Shown in pieces: positions 20,001-55,445 of a stretch of 64,000 nt of DNA (its first letter is position 1; every line of letters starts with the position of its first letter). The stretch comes from Amphiscolops sp. MND2022 (taxonomy: Eukaryota). The stretch spans positions 66,094,001 to 66,158,000 of the forward strand of contig OZ076409.1 in the NCBI GenBank assembly GCA_964187785.1. The letters are read 5' to 3'. The position numbers and the translations under genes were made by a program. Below the pieces are notes generated by a model. It was given only the letters and a program-made list of their open reading frames with translations. It was not told the DNA's origin and made no database searches.

Positions 20001-22260
20001 ATTGGGCGTATTCCTGTTTGTGTTAGGTGATACCCTAACCACTCAACTTCATTTTGTGCGAACTTGCGTTTTTCCCATTTTAATCGTATGTTTGCTTCGT
20101 CAAGTTTTTCTAGTACTTGTTTTACTCGTGCGTAATGATCTGTTTGGATACCTTTGGTCAGTATTAATATGTCATCTAAGAAGACATACGTATTCGCAAT
20201 GTTGGAAAGTTTTTTATCCATAACTTTTTGGAACTCTGTTGGCATCATTGTGAGTCCATAGAACCCAGTGATGAAGCGGTATGTACCTGTTGCCTTGCCA
20301 CCTATTATTTGAAAATTACAGTGGCGTGCAATTTCTTCGTCTAACGGTACTGTGATTACAACTGGTTGGATAAATTGTTTATCCGTCACATCGGTTACTT
20401 TTTTGATGTGTCCTTCATTTAATAACCTTTCATTTTCTTCTTGTACCGCGTCTTGTAGTTGGATAGGAACTCGTCTACCCTTTTGTTGCGTTATTTTGGC
20501 TTCTGGTTTAAACTCAATTTTTACTGTATGATTGCGAATTTGTCCTTGTCTAGTGAATAAGGAGGAAAATTGGTTTTGTAATTATATCTTTTCGTTGTGA
20601 TTATCGTTATCACTCGAATCTTTTGAATTATTCTGTTTATTTGGTTGTTTAACATTTTGTTTAATTGTGTAAATAGCTTTGTTACCTTCACTTTTTGTTG
20701 GAGACACGAATTTGTAGTTGAACGCGTTCAGCCAATCACGTCCAATGAGTGATTTTGCGCCTTTGTCCGCAATCAGTATTCGCGCTTTATTTAGTTTGCT
20801 ATCACCAACTTCCAAATGGCAGAATATGTATCCCAATAATTGTAGTTTTCGTTTATTGAAGTCCACGTATTCTTCATCTTTTGGTAGTTCTCTAACGAAT
20901 AATGTTTTGCGCTTCATTATTTGTTTTATTTCATCGATTGCAAATATCGTTACTGGTGATCCAGAATCGACCATTGTTTGAAATGGGTTCCCATTGATCT
21001 TTCCTTTCATGGTGAACTGTCCACTTGTATCTCCTTCAATTGTGAGTACCACCTTCTCATCATCTACAATTGATTCTCCACTGCTTTCGCTCCATTCATC
21101 AATGCGTTGAATATGTTGTGGGGGTTTTGCTACTTTACGGCTTTTTGCAAATGTGCCTGCGCCTTTAGTTTGGCAACATCTAACGAAATGTCCTTTCTTG
21201 CCACATTTCATGCAAGTAACACCTAAGGCTTTACATTCCTTAAGGTGTTGAGGTGTGAATATTCCTTCGCATCTGAAGCACTTTTTGGTTGGGCCCCAAC
21301 GTTTATTGGTTTGGTTAATATTATTCACTTCCGCTGCTTCAGTTTTTATATTTGGTTTATCTAGCATACCAAACGATTGTTGTCTCAGTAAGCAATTGCG
21401 AATTGGATTGTTTCTGCTGCTGTTGCTTTTGGCTCAGTGCACAATTTTTGTTGTACAAATTGGTTTATCATGTTCACTGTGAAGACGTCTTTTACTAAGC
21501 TGTCTGTTATCGTGCCGAAATTGCATTTCGCTGCTAATCCATTTAATTCGTTCCAGAAGTTTCTCAATGATTCTCCTTCTTTTAGTTTTGAAGAATTTGA
21601 AGCGATCGAGGGTTTCATTCTTGGGTTTCTCAAAGCAATCTTTGCAGTTTTTAACAAATCTGGGAGTGACACTGTGGCAATATTGGTAGTGAGAAATTTG
21701 TCAGCAATTGATTTTCGTCCTGCCGATCCCAGAGCAAGGTAAAGTACGCTTATAGCTTTCTTTGTGGCTGGTATTTCGTCGAGATTACCCATTAAACTTT
21801 TGTCTTTGTTTCCCGTTTTTATTAATTCAGCAATGGATATGTTGTTTTTGGCCATTAATGCCACTTCAAATAAATCTCGCCATTTTTCCAATTCTAATGT
21901 AGGATTTTTAGATGCATCTTGCCAGTAAGTTGGAAGTTCTGCAATCGCTTGAGATCCTCCCGAAGATTCGGCTCGCAGCGCCATGTTTTAGGGTTTCTCT
22001 ATTCTCAATAATAGTTACTCTGCTTTAGGTAACAAGAGAGGGTTGAGCAAGATTCTATTCTCGATCTAGACCATGTGGCAAACTGATTTACTATCTTCAT
22101 TATGGTCTATAGTTTTGCTGGTACTATTGGCCAACATTGGTAACAACAAAGACAATTGACAAATGTATAAATGAACATAATATGATTGACAGTTTGTTTA
22201 CAGTTTGATTGTTTTTTAATTTAAGTTTCTTTTGACTTCTTTTGTGACAGCCCTGCCACA
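17058..22260 (-). mobile_element. Gypsy-type LTR retrotransposon, internally deleted/decayed (5.2 kb)
   Basis: 277-bp LTRs (21984-22260 and 17058-17334; TGTGGC..AAAACA on -; 4 differences), PBS TGGCGCTGCGAGC immediately after the 5' LTR, PPT AGAAGGAGGAG at 17335-17345. Confidence 0.93.
17417..21984 (-). pseudogene. gag-pol of the small Gypsy element (disrupted)
   Basis: gag with zinc knuckle CMKCGKKGHFVRCC, protease VDSGS, RT FLDD (part of RT deleted after PVVITV), RNase H CDAS/SDH, integrase H..HPG..CPEC and DDE core; several stops and frameshifts. Confidence 0.9.
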
Positions 22261-22480
22261 CTATGCACCAACATTTCGCTTTTTCAATTGGATTTTGTCC
22301 AGATACCCATAAGATGCGTTCTAAGTTTGGCGGCAATTCGCAGCCACGAAGCTTTGCACGTTTCATATGGAAGCAGTTCAATAGTCAAAAGCAGTTGAGT
22401 TTTCATCAATTCTACCGCCGTTTGAAAGCAATTAAACTCCATTTTTAAGTCTCAAAGTACCTTCATGTTCAGTGTGCAAT
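22261..22480. repeat. Right copy of the 220-bp direct duplication
   Basis: Matches 16838-17057; begins at the first base after the LTR. Confidence 0.9.
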
Positions 22481-26937: not shown

Positions 26938-27193
26938 GTGAGCTTAAAGGGTGCAATTAATTAAAATAAGCCATAACATTACCGAAGATCCTTACTGATA
27001 TTCAGACTCTTCATTGTAAATAATAAATTATCAATCGTTCAATCAAAAGAAGCATTAGATATACGTAATGTCAGCTATCTACGAATGTTAAATGGTCAGC
27101 CACTACAGTTTCTGAAATGATTATTAAGGCATTTGAAAACCAAAATACTCAATCACCAATTGAAGTCATTTATAATTTTCAAATCAAATCCGA

Positions 27194-28670
27194 TGTCGCA
27201 GGCTGCCGCCTGCGATGGCCTGACATACCAGATCACTCCAGAAGGTGATATGACAGCGCCTCTACCCGGAGTACTACCCATATAGAAGAGACTTAAAACA
27301 CTCAGAAACAATTTCACTTAGTTATATATTTTAATATTTTACTGATATGATAAATAATCTGATCATTGTGAGCAGTTTAACTACAATTGTTGACCTAAGG
27401 TCAACTTGACGGCATGTGCTTACTTGTGAATATAGTATTATTATTTAACAATACATTATGTTATTTATGTTATAATCCACCAGTTGTGAACTAGTAATCT
27501 AACGTGTAGCTAATTGTTTGCTGTTAGTGAAGTATAAATAATTCTGAGCAAGTGCTAATGTAAACTGACAATAAAGTAGGAAACGCGTTCAACTGGTACA
27601 GCGCTGCCGTCAAGTTGACGCGTAGTCCGAATTGGCGTTAGCCAATCAAATTGCAGTTACTAATATTTTACTGCCGCCGCTTGGACCATTGGTCCATTTA
27701 GCTCAATATCGTTCTGATTGCATGAAATGTTATTGTTGTCATGTAAACTTTATACTTTGTTCATTGTTGTTACTATTTATAGAACCTATGACGTGTTGTC
27801 ACATGTAATCTCAGTTGCTATATTTAGAATTATGATGTAATAGTGATGTCATTACTATTTTTACCCTATGACACCCTAAATATTGAGTGTCATGCGGGTA
27901 GGAGTATATATACGAAAGCTCAGTTGCATTTAAATCAATCAATCAATATACCACAACCTCAATACGAACAATTCCGTTACAGTCCTTCAATTTGACAATC
28001 TATTATTGAACTAGATTTCCTTTTGATATGCCTTCAACTAGAAAGCAAAAAGCGAAAGAGAAACGCTCGAGACAATCTGACGTAATGTCGGATATTGAAA
28101 ACTTAGATGTGATGCTAGGGAATTATGCAAACAGTGATATTAGAGACCGAGATATTGTAGATCAAATAGAAATTGACCCTGAGTCAAGTAGACGGCAACC
28201 AGGTTTTGGTCAAGAAGAAAGTAACTATAGGTCTCAATTGAACACTAACTTGAGTGAGAATAGTGAAATCACTGTAGAAACTAGTAGAGCAATTAGTTCA
28301 GAAATTTCCTCACAAATGTCGAGAAAATTGGAAGAGATGAAGTCTGATTTAAATTCTCATATTTTGGAAGTTATAAACTCAGCCATTGATGAAAAGATAC
28401 TTCCTAGTATTGAAAATGTAATTGCAAACAAAAGGGAGACAAAAAATGCAAAATGGGACCTTCGGTCAGATGGACGGCATCCAGATAGGAATATCCAAAT
28501 GACTCAGAATTCGGACCTTGAGTCACATGGACGGCATAAAAGTAAATTTTGCCAGCAGGTCCAGGACTCAGGCGAGAACTTCCCTAAACTAATCGCAACT
28601 TCTAGTAACCAGAATAATCACTGTAGGGAAAATCCAAATTTCGATCAAAGTGATGATGAAGGTTACGACA
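27194..28670 (+). repeat. 5' LTR (1477 bp)
   Basis: Near-identical to 41775-43254 (about 10 substitutions and one 3-nt indel by eye); TATA-like TATATATA near 27905. Confidence 0.97.
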
Positions 28671-29818
28671 TGGTGACAGGAGCCAACCTTACCCCACATT
28701 TGGTCCCAGAATTCCTGACCGGACGGCCCATGCAATCCCGAAACACTATTCCCCTTCCAAATCCTAGCACTGACGATACGCTGGAAACAACCCTCCCAGC
28801 TCAGCAAAATCCAATTTCAATCAACACTCAGGAGACGCCCCGCGAACCTCCAGTCGACCCCATCAACCGTCTTGCAGATGTCATTATGGGGATGAACACG
28901 AAACAACCATCTCAAACTCTGATGGTACGCCCAGTCAGTACGACCACACTGACGTTTGACGGGAAATCTGAAAAGTTCGAACTGTTCGAAGATCTTTTTC
29001 ACACGATGATAAAGATGCAACCGGACATGACGGAAACAATGAAAATCAACCATTTTCACTCCCTGTTGCGCAAAAACGCGCTACAGACCTTTCGCAACAT
29101 CAATTCAACCAACAGAAAAACCCTAGAGGACATACTAGCAGTCTTCCGTAGGAAATATGTCAAACCCGAATCTCAGGCAACTGCCAAACACAAATGGAAC
29201 AAAATGGTATTTGATCCAAATACCATGAAATTGCCTGATTTCCTCGAAGAACTTAACCAAGGTGCTGAAAAAGCCTTTGGGGAACATGCCCAAGCAATGA
29301 TTGACAGTTTGCTTTATGCTAAACTACCACCTAAACTGAAACGTTCAGTTAACATGGCGCGACTTGAAAACGCTACGTATGAAGAGATTGTCACACATCT
29401 CGAACGAGAATTAGAACTGAATGGACTTGAGGAAGGTGACGACATTCACGTCCCCACAATGTCCACTGCCCCCACAGCAACACGACCGGGAACTGGTCTC
29501 CTTTCATCCGGCATCGACCCAAACATTACTTGCAATTATTGCAAAAAACCTGGGCACGTCAAAGATGACTGCCGCAAACTCAAAAGAAAGGAGGAACAAA
29601 AGCGCAATGGCGGACAGTATACGAAGAAAGAATATCCCAAATGTCCAACTTGCGACAAAACGAATCACCCGGCGGAACGGTGTTGGAAAGGCGCTGGAGC
29701 CCACCTCAAGCCCAAAAACCTCAAATTGGATAATTCCAAAACCGAGGAAACTCCGATGAGTCAAGATGACTCCAATAACAAACCCACTACTTCTATTCTC
29801 AAAAATTCAAAAAACTAG
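28028..29818 (+). CDS. gag: Gag (596 aa), starting inside the 5' LTR
   Basis: Capsid-like region (FDGKSEKFELFEDLF...) and two zinc knuckles CNYCKKPGHVKDDC and CPTCDKTNHPAERC; intact. Confidence 0.92.
   Translation: MPSTRKQKAKEKRSRQSDVMSDIENLDVMLGNYANSDIRDRDIVDQIEIDPESSRRQPGFGQEESNYRSQLNTNLSENSEITVETSRAISSEISSQMSRKLEEMKSDLNSHILEVINSAIDEKILPSIENVIANKRETKNAKWDLRSDGRHPDRNIQMTQNSDLESHGRHKSKFCQQVQDSGENFPKLIATSSNQNNHCRENPNFDQSDDEGYDMVTGANLTPHLVPEFLTGRPMQSRNTIPLPNPSTDDTLETTLPAQQNPISINTQETPREPPVDPINRLADVIMGMNTKQPSQTLMVRPVSTTTLTFDGKSEKFELFEDLFHTMIKMQPDMTETMKINHFHSLLRKNALQTFRNINSTNRKTLEDILAVFRRKYVKPESQATAKHKWNKMVFDPNTMKLPDFLEELNQGAEKAFGEHAQAMIDSLLYAKLPPKLKRSVNMARLENATYEEIVTHLERELELNGLEEGDDIHVPTMSTAPTATRPGTGLLSSGIDPNITCNYCKKPGHVKDDCRKLKRKEEQKRNGGQYTKKEYPKCPTCDKTNHPAERCWKGAGAHLKPKNLKLDNSKTEETPMSQDDSNNKPTTSILKNSKN
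28671..28682 (+). other. Primer-binding site
   Basis: TGGTGACAGGAG directly after the LTR end; resembles the complement of the 3' end of eukaryotic tRNA-Leu (TGGTGTCAGGAG). Primer identity is an inference. Confidence 0.75.
29809..29815 (+). other. -1 ribosomal frameshift heptamer A AAA AAC
   Basis: Immediately before the gag TAG; pol is in the -1 frame. Confidence 0.75.
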
Positions 29819-32800
29819 ATTTGCCACGACTCCAGATTAATGAAAAACTACTTGTCAGACAATATTTAATATCTGACCCTCCTACTATCTATTATACAGA
29901 ATATTATTCCTCCATTAAAGAAAATTCATCAGCTGACTGGCAGCAGCAGGTGAAACAAACTCCTACCAATTTACACAATTTGGACCTTCAGTCCAATAGA
30001 CAGCACTCTAACACTATGACTATTCGCACTCTTCCCCTCATAGATAACTATAATCCCTATTATCCCGACCCAGACTTTGGTTTCGACCCCTATTGGGACG
30101 TTCACATCTACAACCAGCATCATCTACACTTCTACAAAAACTTCACCAAAAATGCTGCAGATATCGAACCTGATCAACACCATATTGATCAGCTACAGCA
30201 TACCAAACTATCCATGGCCTCTGTGGACCCCTGGCAAAAGGGGCAGATTAACAACCACCCACCAATCCAGGAGGAAATCACACAAGAACTTCCACACAAT
30301 GGACCTCTGGTCACATTGACGGCAACAGTGGAAGAACGATATGTGAACACGCTGATCTCACGAAATGGTGAACCTGACTATGTCCCGTTGACAACCAACT
30401 TGGGGCTCAAATATAAACGACGCATGCTCTGCTTTCCAATGGATTTTGGCGAACTAACATTAGATGGCCTTGTAGACACGGGAGCCCTATCTAGCGCGAT
30501 CCCAGAAGCTGATCTACGTAAAATCCGATTACTAGCCCCTCAGTCCATAATTAAAGAGGGCCCAGCACCCAACTTCCAAATTATGGTAGCTAATGGACAG
30601 CTGGAGAATCCAAAGAGCACCGTTGAACTCAAATTCGAGGTCGGGGACTTCGATTTCCATGAGATCTTCATTGTTATGGAAAAACTTACAAGTCCGCTCA
30701 TTGGTCTCTCGTTCCTGCAACGGAACAATACCATATTGGACATGCGACAGGGAATCTTAAACTTTCCATTCTTTTCCATGCAATTAAAAACAGCTGACCA
30801 TAAGTACACCAATGTCATGGAACCTATCTGTGCGCGGGAGGACATAACTATTCCCCCCAATGACAGACATATGGTCTCCATGTCCTCACAACTATATGAC
30901 GACACAAACGTCACCGGAATCCTTCAACCGAGCAATGACCTTGCAGAAGATGGTGACATAACCTTCTGCGCTGCTCTCGTCACACTGACCCAAGGTCAGG
31001 TATCGATCCATGTCAAAAATTTCACTGACCAGCCATACACCATCAAAAGAGGCTCGCACATTGCAAATTTCTCTGTTCTCACCCCAGAACAAATGAAATA
31101 CGTCAAACCCATTGACCCAGTAACCACCTGGCACTTTTTGAAAGATAATCCGGAAAATGCTGCATACTATGCCAGTAGCCTCATCAAATCCCCGAAAAAT
31201 AGCGAAGACAGTCAGAACTATTGGTTCCCGACTCCAGAAGAACCAGTGGACCCTCAAACGCATACACCAATACAACAAAGAATCCTCAGGGAATTACGAA
31301 GCCTCCAGGATTTAGAGAAACTCAACCCCCAGGACGACCCTGAGTCCAGGAAACAGTTTCTTGCTAACTTTGACTGGACTGACTCAACGCTAAATCCGGT
31401 TGAAATTGCCCAAATTGAGGAAATACTTGTCGAATTTCACGACATTTTTGCAAGGCACCGCTTTGATATAGGAATGAACGAGGACTTCAAAGTCACAATG
31501 ACCCCAAAAGACGACTCTCCCGCCTACAGTCAAAGCCTACCTACCCCTATCAACCTCAAAGAAGACATTCTGTTGAATTAGCACTACTCCACCGCTATGG
31601 GATCATAACAACACTTCCGTTTTCCAAATATGCGAGCCCCATTTTTGCCCAGAAAAAACCTAATGGCAAATTACGACTTTTGGTTGACCTCCGAAAAATC
31701 AACAATTTGATCTTCGACGATAATATCAACAACAACCATCCTGTCAGCACATTAACGGATGCAGCGCAACACATTTCAGGCAAACGATTATTTTGCAAGC
31801 TCGACTGTTCTCAGGCATACCACTGTCTGCAGATGGCGGACCAAAGGTCCATAGAGATGTTGGCATTCAATTTCGCCAGTTGAACCTTTGCCTATCGCCG
31901 ACTTGCGCAAGGTCTGAGCCGAGCCCTATCAGCTTTCTCAAGTTTTATGCGTGAATACCTGGATAAAGTGATTAAAGCGGATCAATGTGCCCAATATGTC
32001 GATGACAGTGGGATTGCCGCCAACAGTGCCACTCAACTCATCAACAACTTGCGAGCAACATTTGCATGCATCAGGACCGCGGGTCTCAAATTAACGATGC
32101 ACAAATGTCACTTCGGAGCCAAAGAAATTGACTTCCTGGGACGCACCATCACTCCTGAGGGAGTGCGGCCGCAACGACCCAGGGTCCAAAACTTTCTGGA
32201 GAAAACGAATTTTCCGAAATCCAAAAAAGCTCTTCATCGATATTTGGGATTTTTAAACAACTACCGCAATTACATTCCACGGCTCTCTGAAAAGCTAACA
32301 CCATTCTTCAAGCTGTTGAAAAATGATTCCAAAGTCATGGTGACCCCTGAACTGTTAGAACAATTCACCGAGATCAACAAAGCTCTTGACCGATGTTGTG
32401 AACTCGCACTCAAACAACCTCTGCCCAACAAACAGATAGCCCTGATGACTGATGCTAGTTTTTCGGCAGCAGGTTATGCAGTTCTCATCGAGGATGATCC
32501 AATGGAAAAATATAGTTCAACGCGCAAAGCCTTTGCACCAGTAGCATATGGATCCAAGACCTTTAGTCCCGCCCAGTTGAAAATGTCCATCTATGCGAGA
32601 GAATTCTTAGCAATATTCTTTGCCTTCAGGGAGTTTGGACACATCTTCTGGGGGACCCCGACACCGGTGATCATTCTAACAGACAACAAATCAGTCACTC
32701 GCTTTTTTTTCAGACGAAAATTATTCCACCAACGCTATGGAACGCGTGTGACTACGTTATTCAGTTCAGCTTCACGATTGCCCATATACCAGGGAAAAAC

Positions 32801-34984
32801 AATACTGCCGCAGATTATTTGTCCCGTCTTGAAATCTGTCCTAACGAAAAACTTGTACTCCGCATACGAGAGGACATTCCAACTACACCCATTGAACTCA
32901 ATGTCCAATCAGCGGGAGTGACCGAAGAGGACCAGATATTCTACACGGACGACGAAGAAGAAACTGAGGAACAATTATGGCAAAGAAAAAAGGAAGCCAG
33001 GTCAAATCCTACAAATCAACTACCTGATATTACATTGGACAAACTCAGTCTACATAAAAGTACCCAAATCCAAACACCAACTTTGCAAAAACTAGCGAAA
33101 CCAATCACCATGGCTATTGAACAAAACAATGACATCACATTGCAACAACTACGCCTCAAATTACAAAAAGAAGAATACTCTGAAACCATCTTACAGCAGG
33201 ATCCACGTTACCGACATTACTGCCGTCAACTTGACCGTCTGTCCGTTCATGAAGATATCATCTACAGAGACTATTATGACGAAACCGGCAATGTCCAATT
33301 TCGCCAAGTGCTATTACCGAAACACCTTGTCACTGAATTACTTCAATCCTTACACGGCACTGCGAACAAACATCCAGGAATTTCCAAAATGCTTCATGAG
33401 ATACGTCAAAAATACTATTACCCAGGCGTTGCAAAAATTGTCAAAAAATGGGTCCAAGGGTGCGAAATCTGCATCCGAGACAAACGAATTGCCAACGCAT
33501 CAATAACACCCGAATTACTGAATTTGCCCGAATGGGACCTAGGTCCGGAAGACGCCTAACAAATAGACCTGTTACCGAACCTCCCACCCAGTGGAGGATA
33601 TGAAAACATCATAACAGCTTTAGACGTCTTCTCCGGATACCTTTTTGCATATCCTGTAACGGACGCGTCGGCAATCAGTACAGCAAAAGTTCTCATTGAC
33701 ATTATGACCCGACACACGTATCTACCAACGACACTTATCACAGATAAAGGAACGGCTTTTACGTCTCGCGTAGTAACAGAAGTAGCAAAAATTTTGGGCA
33801 TCACACTTCAATGTGCGACCACAAAACATCCTCAGACCAAAGGTAAACTAGAGAGAACCCATGCCAGCCTCAAAGGAAACCTCAAAATGGCATCAGGAGA
33901 GTACAGGCGCCAGTGCCATAAATACCTCCCTTTGGCTGTCCTTAATTACAATACAACCTACCACTCTAGCCTAGGTTGCGAGCCATCTAGAATTTTTCAT
34001 GGCAGAGTGCCTTATAACATCCTGGACCATCGGTTAGGTTTGAACCCCAATCCAAAAATCATACCAACAACCGACTTTGCTGAAGAACTACAACGCCGCA
34101 CTCAAAACCTTATTGATAAAACAAAGAAAAACATTATGCAATCATACTTAAAGTACAAAGACTATTACGATCGGAAGGCTAAAGCAGCTCCCTTAGAACA
34201 AGGAGATTTTTGCTTCATTTTACAGCCACTAGCCGATCATCAGGGTTCTAAAATCCCATTTCGAGAATTTCGATGGATCGGACCATATGTCATCGAAAAG
34301 GTCCTTCCTAACGAGAATTATAATATGCGCAAACTGAATTCTAACAAAACGCAGATTTTACACCGAAAACGCCTTAGGAAATATACTCCAAATACTACAT
34401 TACAAGATACTCGCCCTGAAGGAAATTTACAAGCCGATGATGAAATTATTATCCCACAAGACGACCTGTACATTATTTCATGGGAAAGCAATTTTGATGA
34501 TTTCCCTCCTAGTACTGAACAGCAAATCAATCCTAACGATTCTCCTACTCATTTTAATGAACAAGACGCTATAATCACAGATTTGGACCTTCGGTCCACG
34601 CGGCGGCAAGAAAATACTGACGCTGCGGATACTGATTCACACTCGCGTGAAGTAGCTGAAGCGGACCTTCGGTCCGCGCGACGGCAAACAAATACTGAAT
34701 CTGATAATTTTGAACAAGACGCGCGTGACCAAACTACTGAAGACCGTCAGTCCACCCGACGGCAAGAAAGTACCGAATTTGAAAACGATGAAATAGTTAA
34801 TCAAGACTCGTCTGTTGATGAAAATTCTGATTATTCAACTTATAGGGGGAATGATACAACCGTGCCCGATGTATTAAACGAAGAAACTGATGATTGTGTT
34901 GTAGAAAACGAAAGTCCTAGGGGAGGGAAATATAACTTACGCCCCAATCCTACCCCCAACTTTACTGATGAATACAGATACTAG
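29815..34984 (+). pseudogene. pol: Pol (protease, dUTPase-like remnant, RT, RNase H, integrase), disrupted in this copy
   Basis: LVDTGA, LDCSQAY, YVDD, TDAS, TDNKS, H..HPG..CEIC, integrase core. Lesions: 1-nt deletion near 31571, TGA 31881, frameshift in T-run near 32703-32710, TAA 33557. Confidence 0.93.
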
Positions 34985-35226
34985 TCAGAAAATGTAAATT
35001 CACTGGCCCGTTGCATTCTTTTTCTCTCCTCTTACTGACACTGACTGTCAAATTATTTTTTTCATGGGCCCTATCTGACTTTAAGTTTTCAATGCAGACT
35101 CAAACACAAGTGTCAAAATGACACAACTATAAAACAGACACGAAAACAACTCAAACAAACTCAAAAGAAACGAACAAATTAACAGATACATAAATACAAC
35201 TAAAAACAAATGTACATATGGCACAA

Positions 35227-38200
35227 TTAAACGTCTTTAGTCGATGAGCTAGTAGGAAGTTCACTATCAGATGGCCGTTTGACAGGGGAGGTTTTGGCAC
35301 TAGATGAAGGAAGACTTTTTGAAACTTTGCCGCCCTTTAGTCCTTTGAACCGCAGTTTACGAGTGTCACCTTTCTGCTTCACCAAAACAGGATGTAATGT
35401 TGCAAGGATTTCTGTGCGGTTGAACAAGTCTAAGCCGTCCCAGGGACTGTAGGTGTCTGTAAAAGCTGAACCTCCAAATGTAGGCTCGAAAGCCAGAAAG
35501 TCGCTGATTGGAGTGGCAGTGGTAAGAGCATCGACACTACGCCCAACATTCATGAAGAAAGATTGGACAGGCAATATTGTATCAATCAGCTTACTTTTGG
35601 GGTCATCTTCACGGACGAGTCCGAACTTCACTGGAGGCATGGCACTGTAACCCTGATCAAGGCAGAGGCAACTGAGTTTAAAGATCCGTGCCAAATGAGG
35701 ACGTGACAACAAAGTAACATGTCCAGATTTGAATGCAACTGCATCAAGAATAATGACCCTGGGTTGGTCTAAGTCAGGGTACTCTTTTCGAAGTTCATCA
35801 AGGAAGGACAAATACTCTTCAGTGCAAATGGATTCGTCGTCGGCTTGATAATATCCACGCACATGAAAACTACGAAACAACTGCTTAAAACAATACAGGG
35901 CCTGGCTAAGAGGGGAACGAAATATAATATCGAGATCAAAGGAGCCCATTCCCTTTACTATATCCGAGGTCAGCTGTAAATTGCTCTGGGCAGCATGAAA
36001 CAAGTATGCAACGTAGCTGCGGCCTAATCGTCCGAATTCCTCTTTGCCTTGGTTTACCAATTTGGGCAAATTGGCTCTACTGGTCTTCTTCTCACTCAGC
36101 TCCTTCTCAGCCTTAATTTTACAAGCAGTATTGAGGCGCTGATCGAGTTTACATCTGGTTATAAAATCAGGGACGGACAAAGCACGAGCATCTGAGACTG
36201 ACACGCCGAGGATTCCAGATAAGTCAGTTTCTTGGGGCAAGCTCTTGGCCTTGATGCATTGTCTTCCGAGTTTAAACAGAAATTGACAAAGTTGGCAATA
36301 AATATGGAACCCGTGGTCCCGACGTTCAACAAGATGTGGTACGAAACTTGTTGTATCTAAATAAACATATTCCACCATATACAAGAGGACGATTTCATTA
36401 ACCATTCAACCAAAGGGTAATACTAACAATCTCTAACGAGGCGATAAAATAGCTCCAGTCGGCACAGAAACAATTCATCTTGTATCATGGCTCGTTCCAA
36501 GTTTTGGGGCTTAAAACAACAATTAGCCTAATTAAAACGGAGTAAGTTGGACCTAAGGTCATTACGACGGCAAGAACTTACCTGTTTCCTCACTCCCATC
36601 ATCTCATGTGGAGGAGCGTGTTTGTTCAAGTATTCAAGTACCTTGGGCCAATTGGTAAGCAGCTCTTGACATAAGGTGGGAAGCTTCGCCAACTCAATCT
36701 GACAGGTGCGCACAGCCTGGAAAGAGGAATTTATTGAGTCGGGTGAATACTTCTGGCCTACGAAAGAGAAAGAAAGGACATTACCTTAGCAAGTATGGGT
36801 GTCATGAGGGTCCAGTCGCAGTCCAAGCAGCCGCCCAGAAAAATTATGAGGTATTTCAGCACCGAGTGGAAATCTATGCGTCCAAAGACGCTATAACTCT
36901 CCTTATGCATCAATCGGGCAATTGAAAACTCCTCGAATCTGAGGGGGCGCTGAAGTCCATACTTGAAATAAGGAAAGTTGTCAACCAGCTGCACTGTTTC
37001 AAGGGTACTACCAGAACAGCTGACGAGATTCGGACTGGTAGACAGAGCAGCCATGACGTAACTGATCAGGCACTGTTCCGCTGATGACTGGCCAAGGACT
37101 CTACCGGTTCGCTTGAGAAAGACTAGACAAAGTTCATCCTTTCTCCAAAAGCGTATGAAGACGAGCAGGAACACTCCCTGCTTGACAAAGTCCAGAGAAT
37201 ACTCGTCGGAAGCTACTACGTGTTCAGCAATGTCACGGATAGTTAGGAGGAACAGATGATGGAACAGAGCCTGGAAAACACGACCCCAGTGTTACCATAT
37301 GCGAAAAGCAAGATTTAAACCAACTAAGATGACTTAAGGTCAGTAGGAACAGAGGAAGTACTAACCGACAATCGTTCTTTACTCCAGTTGAAGTCGGTGA
37401 AGAGCGACTGGTGGTTCACGATGACGCCGACGTCTCGCCAGAAACTCTTCAAAATACTGATATCACCTTGGCTTCGGAGGTAGTTGCCAAGAACAGATAT
37501 CTGGATTCGTACACGATTCTCTGACGAAGATGCCATGTAATCGGTACCCTGGATATATTCATCGTAAAACGGCAACTTCTCGCCTATGTCCACGAGTTGT
37601 TCTTCAATGAAATAGGGCAGTTCTAGCTGAAGCTCAAAGGGTGTGAGCAATTTACCGTCTCTTCCTCGGACATGGTGCTTGACGACCTTGGTGATCGGAT
37701 CTTCAGTTGCCAGATGTTCATAACGCCACCTCTGGTCTTTTCTGAGATGACGTTCGGTAGCATGATGTCTCAGAATCTCTCGTGCCCCACGACCGTAAAT
37801 GGATATGTTGCCCTTACATATCTGACAATAAAATTTGTAGGGGTTCCACCGAGGGTCAACGGGTCCCGACACAAAGGTCTTGGTCCACTCCATTCCCTTG
37901 AAGTAGGCTTCTTTCATTATTTTGCACCCCCGAGGCACTCGATGTCTACTTGGCCCAGAATTGCGGGTTGGCGTCTTCCTTGATTTTTTCTGTCTCACAA
38001 TTTTGGTTTTCTCAGCCACAGCTTCAGCCTTCAACCCAGCCAACGTTTGTGCCCCAGGACTCTCAAGTTGGTTAGTAGCGTCAAAAGACCCAAGGTCAGC
38101 TCGACTGCAACCTGGTGGGCCTGCGGGAGGTGGAGTAAATGGATGACTCTCTGAATCTGAGTGCTCATAAGAGTATCCGATGCTGGCAAAGTCATCAGTG

Positions 38201-39501
38201 CTTTTGATAGCGCCACTTGTATCGCTGCCATGATCTGATAAAAACCCAGATTGGGATTCTCCGCCGCTGACTCGATCTACAGACTTTCTTGGCTTGGTGT
38301 TGACACCTGAGTTCAGATGAGGGGTCCCGAGGTTAAGCCTACCAGCTTGCTGGATTAGGTTCTCCATGACTTTGAGTGACGATTTGACGGCTTCGTCTGC
38401 GACAACCTTCAGGACATGACAAACCTGTCCTTCATTTAAGTCTAACGTTGAGTGCCCAGCTGGCAATTCTACTGGAGTAGCGGCTTCAAAATATTCCTTT
38501 ATTAGCGCACGACTACTGGCACTCAATTGAGGATCTCGTGGTACCGCTTCAGGGAAATCTACCGAAGTATTGCTAGCTGTATCGCATACACTGAATACGT
38601 TTGCACTAGTTGGGGCAAACAATGCATCAGCAACGGTAGATCCAACGAGTCCTTCCGAATCCTGTCCAACGTCACTACAGATTCGGGCAGGCGACTTTGG
38701 TCTGCGTTTGTCCCCGGAATGAGGAGCCCGAAAATCATCTGAAAACTCATTTTCACTCTCAGTCAGGGTTGGACGTTCCATCTGATCTGCGGCAACAGAC
38801 AAAACTCGTGATTCATTCCCCAGCTTGATGCTAAGTTTTAGAGCCTTCGCCTCAGGGGGCCCGTATCCGGATTCTAGATTGCTTTTAAAGGGCAACTTTG
38901 GGGCATCGAGGAAGGCAACTTCGGACACGGAATCGGTCTCCATCTCCTCCTGCCTTGCGACATCTTGACCGGGAGCAAGCTCAATCGCAACGCTTTCGCT
39001 AAACTTGTCAGCAGTGCCGCCACCTTGACTAGAAGTTCCCACTTCTGCAGAACAGCCCAACTGTGCCCACTTCCTGACAATATATTCTCCGCAACTCTCA
39101 TCAGTACTGCTACTTTCAACAAGGAAGCTCCCTGCGGTGAGGACGGGAGTGGTGTTGTCTCCAGACACAACGTTGGTCGGTCCACTAGAGTCTAGTTGCA
39201 TTTGACTGGAGTGTGGGTTTTCCACGAGCAAATCCTCTTGCGTGGCCTCAGACTCTGGATTAGTGGGGCTGGCAGCGACAAACTCTTCTGGGTTAGCAGA
39301 GTTGGGGCTTTCAAGATCTAAATTGCAAGCCGGGGCATCTCCAGTAAGTGGTCTCTCAGAGTTCGATGCTGCAGTCACAAACGAATCATTACTATCCATC
39401 CTTTCCTCATCAATACTGCGTCGGGGAGGTTGGTCATTTGACTCATTGCCTAAACGGAATGAAATAAATAAACGCGGTTCACTTCCTGAATATGAATCCA
39501 T
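35227..39501 (-). CDS. Antisense five-exon gene (~1322 aa): acidic N-terminus, BED-like zinc finger, degenerate hAT-transposase fold
   Basis: Exons 39501-37366, 37270-36785, 36716-36582, 36509-36428, 36356-35227 join through four GT-AG introns (95, 68, 72, 71 nt; phases 0,0,0,1) into one uninterrupted 3969-nt frame. Zinc finger FYCQICKGNISIYGRGAREILRHHATERH. Confidence 0.85.
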
Positions 39502-40284
39502 CTTGCCGCTTTAAAACAAACTCTTCCGGAAGTTCACTTGATACAATGTTCATGCTGACAGCAAACATTTCACGATGGAGGAAGTAACTTAGTTGAAATT
39601 ATGAGCTCTGATCAAGCCAGATTTTAACACCATTTAAAGAACCAACCTGTTGTTGAATCCATAGTTGATTAGCAGAATTGATGTGACCCGCGAATTGCGT
39701 ACTGTTGTTCATCGGGTAAACTGATTCGATGACTGTGTCTCAAGTACTCTCCTGAATGATGATTGAGCCGGTTACTGTTGAGATAACCCAAGCGGACTGC
39801 GAGACTGTCAGTTGAGGAAGAAAACAGATCTTCAGAACACCCAGTAAGGTAGCGAAACGCAGAGCAACACTAAGAATTTGAATTAAGACAATTAGCTAAT
39901 CAGGTTGCTTTCCTGCCGGGGATTTGGTGAACTGCGAGAAAGATGTATTTGTCAAAATGTAACCCGAGGTCAGAGAGACAATCCTGATCACTAGGTAATA
40001 CAGTTTAGCTCAAGTGATACTTCACGAGGAAACAAATGACGTAGGAGTAAGGTTCAAATACAGCAACACAAGGTAGTGGACTCAACGTCAACCTGACGGC
40101 AAAGTATTACTAGTTCACAATCAAGTGTTATTTAACCATTGCGTGCAAATTAGACTATGAGTCATTCAGACGGCATGACGTTTATTGTTACCGGATGTAC
40201 TTCTTTCTCACTTACACTACTCTATGAACACTCCGTTGACTAATTACTAGTTCTTACCATCAACTTAGAGTCTAAAATTCCTCA

Positions 40285-40402
40285 ATATTACTATTAATAT
40301 TATTATCATTATCATTGTTATCATTATCATTATTTTTATTATTATTACTATAAAAATAGTTATTATTACTGTTACGATTACAATTATGTCAATAATTATT
40401 AT
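40285..40402. repeat. AT-rich (ATT/ATC/ACT)n low-complexity tract between the divergent accessory genes
   Basis: Imperfect trinucleotide run attattatcattatcattg... Confidence 0.7.
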
Positions 40403-40870
40403 TTGGATGTCGTGGCTACATGTAAGACTCTCTTTAATGCTACCATCTCCTACTTGTTGCTTTAATCAAGCTCTCTTATTACAAGTACATGGTATGGAAC
40501 CTGCCAGTGAAATATTCATGAACTTCACAATTCGTTGTTTTATTCCTTTTCATCACTTTCCCCTAAAAACACATCAAATTGCTTATCTCATTCTCCATTC
40601 ATGTAATTATTTGACAAATTTTGCCAGCTATTTTAGCATCACCTGATTGGCTATGCTATCATCTTTACTGCCGTCGAAGGGACCGACGGTCTTTCAAGTT
40701 ATTTGTTGAATGAGAATTATCGGAGACAACACTTAAATTGTCAAGTGACGCCTTTGAAGAATGAAATAAAACAACTTGAAGAGGCTATTAACAAGCTTCA
40801 CAGATTAATTGCTTGAAAATTATTTGAGACTCTGCTCTTAATCGAAACCTAAAAAGGAAAACTTGAAACT

Positions 40871-41866
40871 ATGATTCGGGGAAAAACCCCACTACCAACT
40901 CCCGCCAAAATTGGGGTTGGACCTAAGGTCAGACGGACGGCAAAAGTTTACTTCTCATCCTACCGTTCTGAAAATCAGTCGCCTAGAATTCAAGCTAGCA
41001 AAATTGCGAAAAGGATATTCCTCAATCGATACAACGCTGAGATGGCTCTACAATTCAACTGCGAATTACTTCCCAGATCGCTAGTGGATCCAAGCTACCA
41101 GTCGTCAGATGAAGATATGGACGTCGACTCCATAATTTCCGCTGACGATATTCTAGATGCTAACGGCGAGGACGACGATATACAAGTTTTGGCTTGCTAC
41201 CGATACAATACTGAATTCCCTCCACAATTAGCGGCAGGAAGGGCCATGACAACCGAGCTAACTGAATGTCTCAACGATCTTAACTTGCCCATCAGTGAAC
41301 CCACTGAATCAGTGAGTACGTTTACAGAACCCTCAAATTCATTGATTGATTGGTTCGTTGGGAATCCACCCCTCACATATTATGGGCAATCTGCTAGTGA
41401 CTACCCTATTGCTCAATGTAGCAGATTGGAACCGGTCCCTAAATCTCCGCAGTCTCCGCCACTGTTTGACCAAAGGCCAACTTACGACAGCCTGCAAGGG
41501 GCAGAAATGCCATTTGGATCAAGCTGGTCCGATAACCCACACATAACTGGTTTAGGCATCAGCACTAGCGGGAACTGCGGACAACCAAACGAAGTTTATT
41601 ACACAGGCTGTGTTGTCTGTGGGAAAGACTACCCGGCAATTAAAGAAGAGATCACCCTTGGCTATTTAGAGAAGACACACTTCCCGGGCGAACCATACGA
41701 GTCAAGACTAGCCAAGCGCAATGCCTTCGAAGCAGGAATGAAGGCTGGGTCCTTCATTCTCGTACCCAGGGGAGTGTCGCAGGCTGCCGCCTGCGATGGC
41801 CTGACATACCAGATCACTCCAGAAGGTGATATGACAGCGCCTCTACCCGGAGTACTACCCATATAG
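40871..41866 (+). CDS. Sense accessory ORF of unknown function (331 aa; alternative start 41042), ends inside the 3' LTR
   Basis: Open frame with an acidic segment and a CVVC motif; no signal peptide or transmembrane segment, so not env-like; last 92 nt lie in the LTR. Confidence 0.7.
   Translation: MIRGKTPLPTPAKIGVGPKVRRTAKVYFSSYRSENQSPRIQASKIAKRIFLNRYNAEMALQFNCELLPRSLVDPSYQSSDEDMDVDSIISADDILDANGEDDDIQVLACYRYNTEFPPQLAAGRAMTTELTECLNDLNLPISEPTESVSTFTEPSNSLIDWFVGNPPLTYYGQSASDYPIAQCSRLEPVPKSPQSPPLFDQRPTYDSLQGAEMPFGSSWSDNPHITGLGISTSGNCGQPNEVYYTGCVVCGKDYPAIKEEITLGYLEKTHFPGEPYESRLAKRNAFEAGMKAGSFILVPRGVSQAAACDGLTYQITPEGDMTAPLPGVLPI
41768..41774 (+). other. Short polypurine tract
   Basis: AGGGGAG directly before the 3' LTR. 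Confidence 0.6.
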
Positions 41867-43254
41867 AAGAGACTTAAAACACTCAGAAACAATTTCACTT
41901 AGTTATATATTTTAATATTTTACTGATATGATAAATAATCTGGTCATTGTGAGCAGTTTAACTACAATTGTTGACCTAAGGTCAACTTGACGGCATGTGC
42001 TTACTTGTGAATATAGTATTATTATTTAACAATACATTATGTTATTTATGTTATAATCCACCAGTTGTGAACTAGTAATCTAACGTGTAGCTAATTGTTT
42101 GCTGTTAGTGAAGTATAAATAATTCTGAGCAAGTGCTAATGTAAACTGCCAATGAAGTAGGAAACGCGTTCAACTGGTACAGCGCTGCCGTCAAGTTGAC
42201 GCGTTGTTCGAATTGGCGTTAGCCAATCAAATTGCAGTTACTAATATTTTACTGCCGCCGCTTGGACCATTGGTCCATTTAGCTCAATATCGTTCTGATT
42301 GCATGAAATGTTATTGTTGTCATGTAAACTTTATACTTTGTTCATTGTTGTTACTATTTATAGAACCTATGACGTGTGGTCACATGTAATCTCAGTTGCT
42401 ATATTTAGAATTATGATGTAATAGTGATGTCATTACTATTTTTACCCTATGACACCCTAAATATTGAGTGTCATGCGGGTAGGAGTATATATACGAAAGC
42501 TCAGTTGCATTTAAATCAATCAATCAATATACCACAACCTCAATACGAACAATTCCGTTACAGTCCTTCAATTTGACAATCTATTATTGAACTAGATTTC
42601 CTTTTGATATGCCTTCAACTAGAAAGCAAAAAGCGAAAGAGAAACGCTCGAGACAATCTGACGTAATGTCGGATATTGAAAACTTAGATGTGATGCTAGG
42701 GAATTATGCAAACAGTGATATTAGAGACCGAGATATTGTAGATCAAATAGAATTTGACCCTGAGTCAAGTAGACGGCAACCAGGTTTTGGTCAAGAAGAA
42801 AGTAACTATAGGTCTCATTTGAACACTAACTTGAGTGAGAATAGTGAAATCACTGTAGAAACTAGTAGAGCAATTAGTTCAGAAATTTCCTCACAAATGT
42901 CGAGAAAATTGAAAGAGATGAAGTCTGATTTAAATTCTCATATTTTGGAAGTAATAAACTCAGCCATTGATGAAAAGATACTTCCTAGTATTGAAAATGT
43001 AATTGCAAACAAAAGGGAGACAAAAAATGCAAAATGGGACCTTCGGTCAGATGGACGGCATCCAGATAGGAATATCCAAATGACTCAGAATTCGGACCTT
43101 GAGTCACATGGACGGCATAAAAGTAAATTTTGCCAGCAGGTCCAGGACTCAGGCGAGAACTTCCCTAAACTAATCGCAACTTCTAGTAACCAGAATAATC
43201 ACTGTAGGGAAAATCCATTGGATTTCGATCAAAGTGATGATGAAGGTTACGACA
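41775..43254 (+). repeat. 3' LTR (1480 bp), containing a duplicate of the first ~215 gag codons (ORF 42609-43259)
   Basis: Direct repeat of 27194-28670. Confidence 0.97.
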
Positions 43255-43467
43255 TCTGATCTAATATAAATAATAAACAGATGACATAAGGAAAACAACC
43301 GTTTCTCATTGTAAAAAACTTTGAATAAATGAGAGTAAAAAACTTCTCATTTGAAACGGTTATATGAATCAAAGTCAAATCCAGCTGGAAGTTTTTTCCA
43401 TCAGAATGTAAAATTACTTAATATGGATGAAAAAGAATTCATTGAGTATTCAGACCTTTGTTCGCAG

Positions 43468-53258: not shown

Positions 53259-54909
53259 CCCAGTGTAAAAACTCCTGGAACTCTTGATAAGAATCTTGGA
53301 TATTCTTGGATTTCTTGGTAAGAATCTTGCCAAGACTCTTACCAAGAAATCCAAGAATTTGCAAGATCTTGCAAGATCGTGCCAAGAAATTCAAGAAATC
53401 CCAAGACTCTTACCAAAAATCCAAGAATTTGCAAGATCTTGCAAGATCGTGCCAAGAAATTCAAGAAATCCCAAGACTCTTACCAAGAAATCCAAGAATT
53501 TGCAAGATCTTGCAAGATCGTGCCAAGAAATTCAAGAAATCCCAAGACTCTTACCCTAGTTGAGACTGCAGGAACTTTTTACATGCTGCAGGCCTGCATG
53601 CAGGGTAATTGTTTATAAAACCTAGAAAATTCAGGGTAATTCAGGTGGTAAATCTTGTAAAATTACACTGCATTTTCCACTACTGCAATTAAATTTGAAA
53701 ATAGATACAACATCATCACCGACACGACCTTATTGTATTTACAATTTGCTTTCTCAACTACTCATCTGATGTGATCACCGCGTCTCAAATAGGACGCTAA
53801 ACATGACGGTATATTGCAGTTTATTAGGTGACTGAAGTAATTTTGCATTAAAGTGGCTGTTAAACTGAGAGCAATTTATTTGCTTTTAAAATTAGAACTG
53901 CTTCTTCATGAAACCTGCAAAACTTCAAGGCGTAAAATTGCCGCCAAAACTTTGATGAATCTTTCAAGCAGCTTGATAAAAGTCGAATTCAACAGGTAAA
54001 TATTTTCGCATGAAAGTTTCCGTAAGAGTTTTAGAAAATCATGATAAAAGTTGCTGGCAACATTAAAGTACATGCAAAAAGTTCAAGAAGTTTCAACAAG
54101 GGTTAGCAAGAAAACCAAGAATTTGCGAGATCTTGCAAGATCGTGCCAAGAAATTCAAGAAATCCCAAGATTCTTATCAAGAGTTTCAAGAGAAACCAAG
54201 AATAGGCAAGAAAATGCAAGAGAATTCAAGATCCCCGTTTAGAATCTCAGTCATCATAAAACCTTCAGAAGTCTCGGTAAATGAGCTAAAAATTATCAAA
54301 AATAACCAGCATTATGAAATTAGGATCTAAAAATTACAAATTTAGACCCAAATCTGATCACGAAAGATCGAAAAATGCAGCTGAAGTTGGAAAATCATTC
54401 AATTTTGCTCTCATAACTGCAAATTAAGATCTGAATTAAGCAAAATCATGATCTAAAAGGATTGAATACAAGATCCAATTGGTATGTATCAAGGATCTAA
54501 AAGTTACATGTTCCAAACCCAAAATTGATCATATCAGGTTGAAATTTCGCAGAATTGGTAATTGCAGACAATTGGTCTCTGAAATTGGCCGTAAATTTAC
54601 CCAGAAAAAGGTTTTACAGAGAAAATTTTACAGATTTTTCCATAACATGGCCAAAAATTACTGTAAACAGGCCTAATTCAACAATTTGTGAGATCGCACT
54701 GAATTTTGAAATAATCGAAATTTTCACCTCCCGGATTTTTTGATAAGAATCTTGGCATTCGTGGAGAATCTTCGTGGAGATTTTCACGAAATTCAAGATT
54801 TTTTGGAAGAAGTAAGACTTTCCAAGATCTTCAAGAAATTCAAGAGGTAGCAGGATTTTGTAGGAAAATCCAAGATCTTGGTAAGAAATCCAAGAGTTTT
54901 TACACTGGG
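53259..54909. mobile_element. Related CCCAGTGTAAAA-TIR element with ~70-bp internal tandem repeats and a nested MITE
   Basis: TIRs CCCAGTGTAAAAACTC / GAGTTTTTACACTGGG; ~70-bp unit repeated 53330-53553 and resuming after 54102. Confidence 0.75.
53554..54101. mobile_element. MITE (CCCTAGTTGAGACT termini), copy 1
   Basis: CCCTAGTTGAGACT ... AGTTTCAACAAGGG with TTA on both sides; inverted homologue at 55900-56464; related fragments near 14493 and 16754. Confidence 0.8.
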
Positions 54910-55445
54910 GCGACGTAAATAAATTAACATTCAATACCAATAAATGTGAAACAATAAACTTCCGGAATGCCCTGCCTGTAAATCATATTGCTTTTGGAAG
55001 CAAAACTCCTTCGAAGTTCACATGAAAATACTTGGTGTTTTATTGGATTAAAAATTGACACCAAGTTAAATGGCACCTTGAATACGTTACTGAATAAATG
55101 AGTTAATTTTGTGGTCTAATGTACAAAATTAGAAGCAAATTCCCTAGGAGATTGAGATGTCTTTTGATGTTTTACGACTCTTATGCAAAACCAGTAATCA
55201 GTTACAGCCTTTTGTGCAACCTCGAAAACAACACTACAACCAATTAAAAACGCCCAGCGGAGAATTTTAGGCGCAATTTTCTACCGAATGCTCGTTGCAA
55301 TCCATACTTTCTAGACAAAACTTGTTTTCTTCTGTTCATTAGTAATACATCTCTGAAATAATTATTGAATTGACTAGACAGCTCCAGGGAAAATAACCAT
55401 CAACTTTGTCCAATTACTTCCTACCTTAAGAAATTAACACAAGAA

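Follow-up and report, generated by a model that had tools for sequence, protein, structure and literature searches.

A selected, family-specific DNA tag along a Ty3/gypsy retrotransposon, with the element's own antisense protein as a plausible candidate binder

The 23-bp motif GAC-N5-GTC-N5-GACGGCA is a selected, family-specific DNA tag distributed along a Ty3/gypsy LTR retrotransposon, and the protein of the element's antisense gene is a plausible candidate for its binder. All copies in the 64-kb window (the whole stretch of DNA that was analyzed) were confined to this 16,061-bp element (27194..43254, + strand), with none in the other 48 kb, and no match appeared in 100 shuffles. The motif proposed in the original prediction is real, but the counts given there, 17 exact copies (13 outside the 3' LTR) and 5 variants, were slightly too low; there are 18 exact copies (14 outside the 3' LTR) and 6 with one mismatch. 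The controls in the window (another LTR element, a LINE, and the flanks) gave 0 to 1 matrix hits.

The element was recognized by its LTR pair, target duplication, and domain order. The 5' LTR (27194..28670, +, 1,477 bp) has TG...CA ends and shares 99.06% identity with the 3' LTR (41775..43254, +, 1,480 bp), the two differing by 11 substitutions and one 3-nt indel. The target-site duplication reads TCCGA on the left (27189..27193) and TCTGA on the right (43255-43259), and a primer-binding-site-like sequence beginning with TGG is located at 28671..28684 (+). The gag gene (28029..29818, +) starts within the LTR and has zf-CCHC and DUF1759 matches. It is followed by pol (29779..34984, +) in the order PR-RT-RH-IN, with a dUTPase-like domain after the protease and a repetitive tail after the integrase. 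In the window copy, pol is broken: its reading frame changes near 31.57 and 32.7 kb, and stops interrupt it at 31881 and 33557.

Within the LTR, an exact copy is located in the upstream part (27392..27414, +), another (27605..27627, -) adjoins CCAAT boxes at 27631 and 27642, and a one-mismatch copy lies at 27672..27694 (-). Three further exact copies fall in the LTR/gag region (28175..28197, 28457..28479, and 28514..28536, all +). These six are duplicated in the 3' LTR between 41973 and 43117 (exact at 41973+, 42756+, 43038+, and 43095+; one mismatch at 42186- and 42253-). In pol, a one-mismatch copy is located at the start (29983..30005, +), exact copies ahead of the protease (30302..30324, +) and just ahead of the integrase zinc domain (33221..33243, -), and three copies with a 78-bp period in the integrase tail (one mismatch at 34586..34608; exact at 34664..34686 and 34742..34764; all +). 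The antisense gene holds an exact copy in intron 3 (36550..36572, +; intron at 36510-36581) and a one-mismatch copy in exon 1 (38087..38109, +). Two exact copies occupy the spacer between this gene and ORF3 (40079..40101 and 40153..40175, both +), another exact copy adjoins a CCAAT box at 40646 (40669..40691, -), and a further exact one lies at the ORF3 start (40920..40942, +). The motif thus occurs on both strands, in two peptide frames, and in the intron, as originally described.

Spacer lengths were found to be conserved. Among 121 spacer pairs tested, only the pair (5,5) was populated (n = 18), the three hits at other pairs being the same sites in another register, and GTC stood exactly 5 nt upstream of GACGGCA in 19/19 cases in the element. 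The description of the motif as 13 fixed bases with freely varying spacers did not hold. In 82 distinct family sites, the spacers were biased (position 4 was C in 61) and two of the supposedly fixed positions varied (position 18, A in 73 and G in 9; position 20, G in 61). The core was therefore revised to GAC-N5-GTC-N5-G(A/G)C-N-GCA.

The exact motif had 3,919 matches genome-wide, compared with 5 for the reversed control pattern, and all 10 of the isolated or sparse loci retrieved were pieces of the element's own lineage, so that the predicted enrichment was found and was confined to the family. Selection was assessed in six family copies of 73 to 75% overall identity. The fixed bases were 96.5% identical in noncoding DNA, against 59.1% in the spacers, and 94.6% identical at four-fold sites, against a background of 52.6%. 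In intron 3 of the antisense gene, the invariant columns among 11 aligned copies were mainly motif bases. This retention at noncoding and synonymous positions, with exact spacing, indicates that the constraint is on the nucleotides and not on the peptide, as had been proposed. Five copies of family W with rearrangements or truncations (L001, L009, L011, L013, and L017) were left out of the matrices, footprints, and trees.

The same comparisons bear on whether the tags are functionless relics of internal duplication or RNA hairpins serving as packaging or splicing signals, which is very improbable. Some neighboring sites do recur at 57- to 78-bp periods, but the spacers drift while the fixed bases stay. 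GAC-N5-GTC is self-complementary and the mean folding z at 14 sites was -1.0; however, the opposite strand holds 18 of the 63 distinct sites, covariation beside the stems was absent (28/63 versus 27.0 and 21/63 versus 20.8), and neither a shared fold nor an Rfam match was detected.

The RT/RNase H/integrase core had been reported to contain no copies. This is correct for full exact copies, but GAC-N5-GTC is in excess there, with 8 to 11 occurrences from PR to integrase versus 1.6 to 2.1 when synonymous codons were shuffled (P = 0.003 in 7/7 open-frame copies from families W, C, and D). The signal therefore extends into the enzyme core, through this excess and through the exact copy at 33221 that just precedes the integrase zinc domain.

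The G-N-C triplets are arrayed differently in sister families that share this gene layout, namely, as GAC-N5-GTC-N6-GAC and as GCC-N6-GGC-N5-GCC or -GAC. The anticipated family-specific variants therefore exist and differ in both triplet and spacing. The family F matrix is GAC-N5-GTC-N6-GACA-N6-GACA, and that of family B is G.C-N6-GGC-N5-GCC. In untrained counts per element, GAC-N5-GTC occurred 29 to 35 times in W, C, and D, 19 to 22 times in F, and 1 to 4 times in A (expected, about 4), whereas GCC-N6-GGC occurred 10 to 18 times in A, B, and H (expected, 1.5 to 2.2) and 0 to 2 times in W, C, and D. In the recombinant family E, the two kinds were mixed (8 F-type sites and 7 H-type sites). Families F, D, and B have as many as four triplets in phase, a pattern that fits the multimeric binder suggested earlier.

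These differences between families of one genome argue against host transcription factors, such as nuclear receptors or domesticated BED proteins, as the readers from which the elements borrow activation. Nuclear-receptor response elements consist of AGGTCA-type half-sites, and some tags hold halves resembling TGACCT-N-AGGTCA or GGTCA-N3-TGAC; the host also has many hAT genes. However, both full half-sites were present in only 2/82 sites, the middle one in 19/82, and a T preceded the first GAC in 16/82. The 10 isolated or sparse loci retrieved were element fragments, and a donor search at 12 host hAT loci found no motif arrays (0 to 2 matrix hits each). A host reader is accordingly considered unlikely.

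The antisense gene, located between pol and ORF3 on the - strand, encodes a protein of 1,322 amino acids without an internal stop and has four GT-AG introns. Exon 1 (37366..39501) encodes an acidic, S/T/P-rich N terminus followed by a CCHH zinc finger (amino acids 559 to 585), and exon 2 (36785..37270) likely encodes the RNase H-like half of a hAT transposase. Exons 3 (36582..36716) and 4 (36428..36509) are followed by the helical exon 5 (35227..36356). A four-exon model was dropped after alignment of 11 copies gave five exons. The splice sites were kept in 11/11 copies, and two relatives join exons 1 and 2 at the same point. In the zinc-finger region and exons 2, 3, and 5, dN was 0.06 to 0.18 and dS was saturated. 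The zinc ligands, CxxC-x16-HxxxxH, were kept except in a few degraded copies. The five-exon gene is conserved among all relatives sampled and was found in 7/7 elements picked by dUTPase (6/6) or pol (1/1) alone, in one of them as fragments only, and no relative without it was found among these seven.

Two weak lines of evidence point to a hAT transposase as the source of this protein. In the language-model features (Atlas), exon 1 scored 0.91 to 0.92 to the FAM200/ZBED5, GTF2IRD2, and zf-BED clusters; searching Atlas with exon 5 yielded nothing of hAT type. The exon 5 model (pLDDT, 57) aligned weakly but collinearly with Hermes, residues 1 to 253 falling on Hermes 367 to 586 (rank 3 of 48,161; 159 aligned; rmsd, 6.6), with a Z of 4.8, a value that common arrangements of helices also reach. 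Pfam, PDB-sequence, Foldseek, and profile-profile (hhalign) tests gave nothing significant, zf-BED of Pfam matched in neither 17 nor 87 members, and no similarity was found to the host hAT profile, a shallow one of 11 rows. On a mapping of exon 2 made by eye and without a fold model, no invariant Asp appeared at the expected strands, and a hydrophobic residue appeared to lie near the place of the catalytic Glu, suggesting that the catalytic residues of the DDE type have likely been lost. No terminal inverted repeats of the kind that, together with an 8-bp duplication, delimit a hAT transposon were found around the gene when the 25 longest of the 49 inverted pairs measuring at least 40 nt were considered.

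The antisense protein evolves rapidly, its tree length being 7.67 changes per site compared with 1.72 for pol. The zinc-finger loops differ between families (YGRGARE in W, FSKGARE in B, R[SA]KGPKE in C and D, KTKGVVE in A, and KTKGARE in F), with no simple mapping onto GAC versus GCC. The codivergence of gene and motifs cannot name the binder, since both are inherited together. ORF3 (40871..41866, +; 331 amino acids) ends inside the 3' LTR. It is kept in the sampled families, diverges fast (25 to 60% identity), and has a conserved CxxC and QAAACDG. However, ORF3 yielded nothing significant in domain or structure searches and is mostly acidic, proline-rich, and low in conserved structure, for which reasons it is a poorer candidate than the antisense protein; its conserved part of about 80 amino acids is probably too small for three or four phased contacts. 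That ORF3 or Gag reads the tags in place of the antisense protein is very improbable.

With little more than even confidence, it is proposed that the tags are bound by an oligomer of the antisense protein, which thereby activates or desilences its own family, much as VANC and TnpA act on DNA transposons in plants. The reader would be a zinc-finger protein, likely a hAT transposase that has become catalytically dead, and its oligomer would place three or four zinc fingers on the G-N-C triplets, contacting the inverted pair and one or two more. Altered triplets and spacing would then confer family specificity. Sites around the LTR promoter and in the spacer that separates the antisense gene from ORF3 would give positive feedback, and those recurring every few hundred bases would coat the element body against host silencing. 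The effector may be the acidic N terminus of the antisense protein or ORF3. A VANC-like demethylation is doubtful because CpG is barely depleted (0.92 to 0.93 in the flanks and 0.80 in the element). The fuller scenario, in which a gypsy lineage captured a hAT transposase, disarmed it, and built from it a family-private code of phased triplets that runs through the whole element and its coding DNA, with ORF3 as the effector and an anti-silencing role, is tentative and falls somewhat short of being probable. Under this scenario, the families would be defined by diversification of the code more than by that of pol.

The direction of the candidate effect could be either activation or repression. 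The antisense protein might also bind the tags to organize DNA (cDNA compaction, nuclear entry, or integration tethering) or to repress its own family and limit copy number. Such roles would suit sites that lie in coding DNA far from promoters at a median gap of 460 bp (largest, 1,537 bp), and a transposase-like oligomer is suited to bridging DNA, as described for Hermes (PMC10368747). However, the sites cluster at CCAAT boxes in the LTR and the internal spacer, the evenness of their spacing does not significantly exceed that of random placement (P = 0.09), and the N-terminal 520 amino acids, acidic and S/T/P-rich, may resemble an activation region. An organizing or repressing role is thus judged rather unlikely.

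One genome offers a retrotransposon protein, a target predicted for it, and at least eight family variants that arose naturally. This set could show whether retrotransposons run private regulatory codes, how such codes diverge, and whether transposases are domesticable by other mobile elements and not by hosts alone. It would also form a natural series for spacing-specificity change in zinc-finger oligomers.

One close likeness is to VANC/VANDAL, an anti-silencing system of Arabidopsis Mutator-like elements whose VANC motifs are described as family-specific (PMC5735166). In both cases, an accessory protein, here a candidate, is encoded by the element, the motif abounds in the family to which it belongs and is scarce in sister families, which among the gypsy families carry another motif, and motif and protein diverge together. 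The present case differs, as far as VANC/VANDAL are described there, in involving an LTR retrotransposon and a motif of 23 to 36 bp with multiple triplets at fixed spacing that also occupies coding DNA. The sites are mostly dispersed and not tandem, there is little sign of CpG methylation, and the candidate protein has no Pfam match to a VANC-type domain. Transposases that activate cognate copies have been described (bioRxiv 10.64898/2026.08.24.746577), in a main text that contains neither "LTR" nor "retrotransposon." Spm TnpA and the AtMu1 transposase resemble the proposal in being transposase-derived regulators that activate cognate copies through motif clusters, with catalysis lost. As described, those act at the ends of their own DNA transposon, whereas the present gene would be one that passed out of a class II element into a class I element.

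The Hermes BED domains are reported to bind cooperatively to a quasi-palindrome and a third repeat in exact phasing (PMC10368747), which resembles the proposed reading of an inverted pair and a third triplet by the zinc fingers of an oligomer. Hermes, however, cuts and pastes, with its repeats flanking terminal inverted repeats, whereas here the sites lie within the element and the residues needed for catalysis appear to be gone. In the plant gypsy elements Retand, Grande, and RIRE2, the interval from pol to the 3' LTR likewise harbors a conserved antisense gene. A regulatory function through DNA binding has been suggested for it (PMC7264820, PMC11963269), and such extra genes are described as being of unknown function (PMC7264820). 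Their domain is TRP28 (PF04195), which had no match here; the present gene is spliced, encodes a zinc finger, and is accompanied by a cis motif under selection, and no target motif was found in the available descriptions of the plant elements. Foamy virus Tas likewise provides a retroelement protein that binds and activates both the LTR and an internal promoter. The Tas gene is, as described, a sense-strand retroviral gene with no relation shown, and the present sites span the whole element. The literature searched contained no such system of self-tag and own regulator for a retrotransposon. In the literature examined, sequence-specific self-activation is established for plant DNA transposons, and the element described here provides a candidate case in a retrotransposon.

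The 23-bp motif GAC-N5-GTC-N5-GACGGCA was present in 18 exact copies in the window, or 24 when up to one mismatch was allowed, and in none of 100 shuffles, in agreement with the original observation that it is repeated through the element. Every copy is confined to one LTR element (27194-43254), which has LTRs of 99.06% identity, a 5-bp target duplication (TCCGA/TCTGA), and a TGG primer site. The domain content is that of Ty3/gypsy, with gag starting at 28029 inside the LTR, followed by pol with protease, a dUTPase-like domain, RT, RNase H, and integrase; pol of this copy is broken at four places. Pol is followed by an antisense gene and a sense ORF (ORF3), the latter running into the 3' LTR. 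Both ends of the LTR carry coding sequence: about 214 Gag codons begin inside it (28029-28670), and ORF3 ends inside it (41775-41866). The dUTPase-like domain (30826-31071), between protease and RT, is divergent and was found throughout the lineage. Internal tandem duplications of 4.6, 2.1, and 0.4 kb were observed in copies L011-L012, L017-L018, and L009-L010, respectively.

A second gypsy-type LTR element (17058-22262, minus strand; 5.2 kb, 279-bp LTRs) is without a motif array. A LINE (10549-14403, minus strand) contains ORF1 with a PHD finger and ORF2 with endonuclease and RT. A 10-bp tandem array from 55285 (130 overlapping 300-nt register copies) is enclosed by inverted arms (53764-56238; 339 nt, 89% complementary), and together they are possibly a non-autonomous DNA element.

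When spacer lengths were tested in an 11 by 11 grid, (5,5) was the only filled cell, and GTC was located exactly 5 nt upstream in 19 of the 19 GACGGCA of the element, confirming that spacer length is conserved. The predicted enrichment was also found in the 1.07-Gb genome, with 3,919 exact matches versus 5 for the reversed pattern; all 10 isolated or sparse loci examined, taken among the first 100 matches listed, were fragments of the same lineage. Over 82 distinct sites, the consensus core is GAC-N5-GTC-N5-G(A/G)C-N-GCA; 6 nt beyond it lies a weak TAC-like tail. The motif recurs along the element body with a median gap of 460 bp, and CCAAT boxes have motif copies beside them both in the LTR and in the spacer that precedes the antisense gene and ORF3. 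Adjacent copies occur at periods of 78, 57, and 74 bp (34586-34764, 28457-28536, and 40079-40175), and in the integrase tail of sister families, the tags of those families recur with a similar period. These periods suggest that local duplication is one source of neighboring tags.

The motif is real and under selection. In six elements of the window element's own family (W), 73 to 75% identical to the window copy, its 18 sites outside the 3' LTR (up to one mismatch) were found at orthologous places. Non-coding identity was 96.5% at fixed bases, 59.1% in spacers, and 58.6% in flanks, and at four-fold degenerate positions fixed bases were 94.6% identical versus a background of 52.6%, although the six copies are related and not independent samples. 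This indicates that the constraint is on the nucleotide sequence, as proposed. The spacers are biased in composition rather than free, and not all positions thought to be fixed are invariant, since the third triplet has A or G and one base of GACGGCA is variable. The enzyme core (protease to integrase), whose RT/RNase H/integrase part was described earlier as lacking copies, contains the two-triplet part 8 to 11 times, versus 1.6 to 2.1 under synonymous shuffles, in 7/7 open-frame copies of W and sister families C and D; in families A, B, E, F, and H, it occurs just 1 to 3 times. An RNA hairpin as the function of the tags is disfavored because both strands are used and there is no covariation beside the stems.

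Sister families were reached in the same genome via distant homologues of the zinc-finger region of the antisense gene. They have the same layout, with RT about 77 to 91% and the zinc-finger region 45 to 63% identical to those of the window. The exact motif is absent from them, and their own tags are present instead, as anticipated: GGAC-N5-GTCC in C, GAC-N5-GTC-N5-G.C-N7-GAC in D, GCC-N6-GGC-N5-G.C in A, G.C-N6-GGC-N5-GCC in B, and GAC-N5-GTC-N6-GACA-N6-GACA in F. The tags follow a common scheme in which two G-N-C triplets form an inverted pair and one or two more triplets stand at fixed distances from it. The W matrix found 25 to 29 sites in W elements versus 0 to 3 in A and B, and the B matrix found 20 to 27 in B versus 0 to 1 in W, own-family counts being partly circular and near-palindromic matrices scoring some sites twice. 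With every matrix, window controls gave 0 to 1 in the flanks and 0 in the other LTR element and the LINE. In untrained counts per element (at most three elements per family), GAC-N5-GTC occurred 29 to 35 times in W, C, and D, 19 to 22 in F, 6 to 12 in B, H, and E, and 1 to 4 in A (expected, 3.1 to 4.7), and GCC-N6-GGC 10 to 18 times in A, B, and H, 7 to 8 in E and F, and 0 to 2 in W, C, and D (expected, 1.4 to 2.5). The family-specific triplets and spacing disfavor binding by a host factor, and a nuclear receptor would find poor half-sites (2/82), although several host paralogues could mimic such a pattern.

The candidate binder is the product of the element's antisense gene. Alignment of 11 copies gave five exons, encoding 1,322 amino acids with no internal stops, and GT-AG introns of 95, 68, 72, and 71 nt. 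In two database relatives (P0277 and P0081), exons 1 and 2 are joined without a break where the junction was predicted; in these, intron 1 was lost or spliced out. Introns can persist in a retroelement when the gene that has them runs antisense to the RNA that is packaged, as would be the case here. The zinc-finger region and exons 2, 3, and 5 showed dN of 0.06 to 0.18 with saturated dS, and the zinc-finger region was matched by at least 150 copies at 79 to 100%. Exon 5 was matched by 878 clusters (50% identity clustering). The lineage extends to other genomes, since the best matches of two query proteins here were only 41% and 67%; the proteins resemble those of acoel worms. In the antisense protein, an acidic, S/T/P-rich stretch of about 520 residues precedes CxxC-x16-HxxxxH. 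Its rate of evolution is about 4.5 times that of pol (tree lengths, 7.67 versus 1.72; 35 rows).

In the ESM Atlas, unnamed clusters ranked first, followed by hAT-derived ones at 0.91 to 0.92 (FAM200/ZBED5 RNase-like, GTF2IRD2, and zf-BED), the ten best named matches all being of one clan. The exon 5 model (pLDDT 57) ranked Hermes, a hAT transposase, third of 48,161 (Z 4.8, rmsd 6.6); no listed alignment was longer (159 residues, 1-253 on 367-586), and it covers the portion expected of a last exon. hAT ancestry is only likely because Foldseek, Pfam, PDB-sequence, and hhalign searches gave no significant match and exon 5 had no hAT match in the Atlas. Judged by eye, a conserved acid appears to be absent at all three catalytic positions. 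Several host hAT transposase ORFs of 600 to 700 amino acids (L070-L081) are unrelated to the antisense protein by profile.

The pol and antisense-gene trees agree at the family level, recombinants excepted, so co-divergence cannot name the binder; one copy (L098) is placed differently in the two trees. Family E (L082-L085) is a mosaic of F-type gag-pol (81 to 97% identity over about 1.5 to 7.4 kb) and an H-type antisense gene. It has 8 F-type and 7 H-type sites, versus 19 in an F element and 16 in an H element; three strong F sites have become weaker, and the LTR gains one H-type site and keeps two F sites. This pattern leans the expected way but proves nothing. Zinc-finger loop residues did not sort with the GAC and GCC families, and no relative without the antisense gene was found.

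Parts of PMC10368747 describe BED domains of Hermes binding a quasi-palindrome cooperatively, with a third protomer taking a third repeat and phasing mattering to one base; the tag shares this geometry of an inverted pair plus a third repeat. An oligomer of the antisense protein would contact three or four triplets together. Recognition would then be as specific as that of a long site, and a single base in a triplet or in the spacing would be enough for families to diverge. A host-made repressor would disfavor the sites, yet they are kept, so binding presumably benefits the element. The benefit would most likely be activation or protection from silencing; that the antisense protein has a structural or repressive function is less likely. 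Because CpG is barely depleted and 0/11 LTR-LTR substitutions are CpG transitions, demethylation is a less likely mechanism than plain activation or one at the level of histone silencing. In ORF3 (40871-41866; alignment A5), hydrophobic-then-acidic stretches (VIYISSSEEE, IICLSSDEEE, and DSDIEVI in relatives) resemble SUMO-interacting motifs, and ORF3 is a possible chromatin effector.

Antisense extra genes of gypsy elements are known and unexplained, according to parts of PMC7264820 and PMC11963269. In the literature covered, mostly openly available papers and including part of PMC12859917, no retrotransposon was described that combines a regulator derived from a transposase with a selected array of targets specific to its family. 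In the portions available of PMC5735166 and bioRxiv 2026.08.24.746577, sequence-specific self-regulators come from plant DNA transposons. By analogy, the anti-silencing role would resemble that of VANC of VANDAL elements (PMC5735166) and the activation role that of TnpA/AtMu1 (bioRxiv 2026.08.24.746577). On present evidence, the tag and antisense gene would work like VANC or TnpA but are not members of either system.
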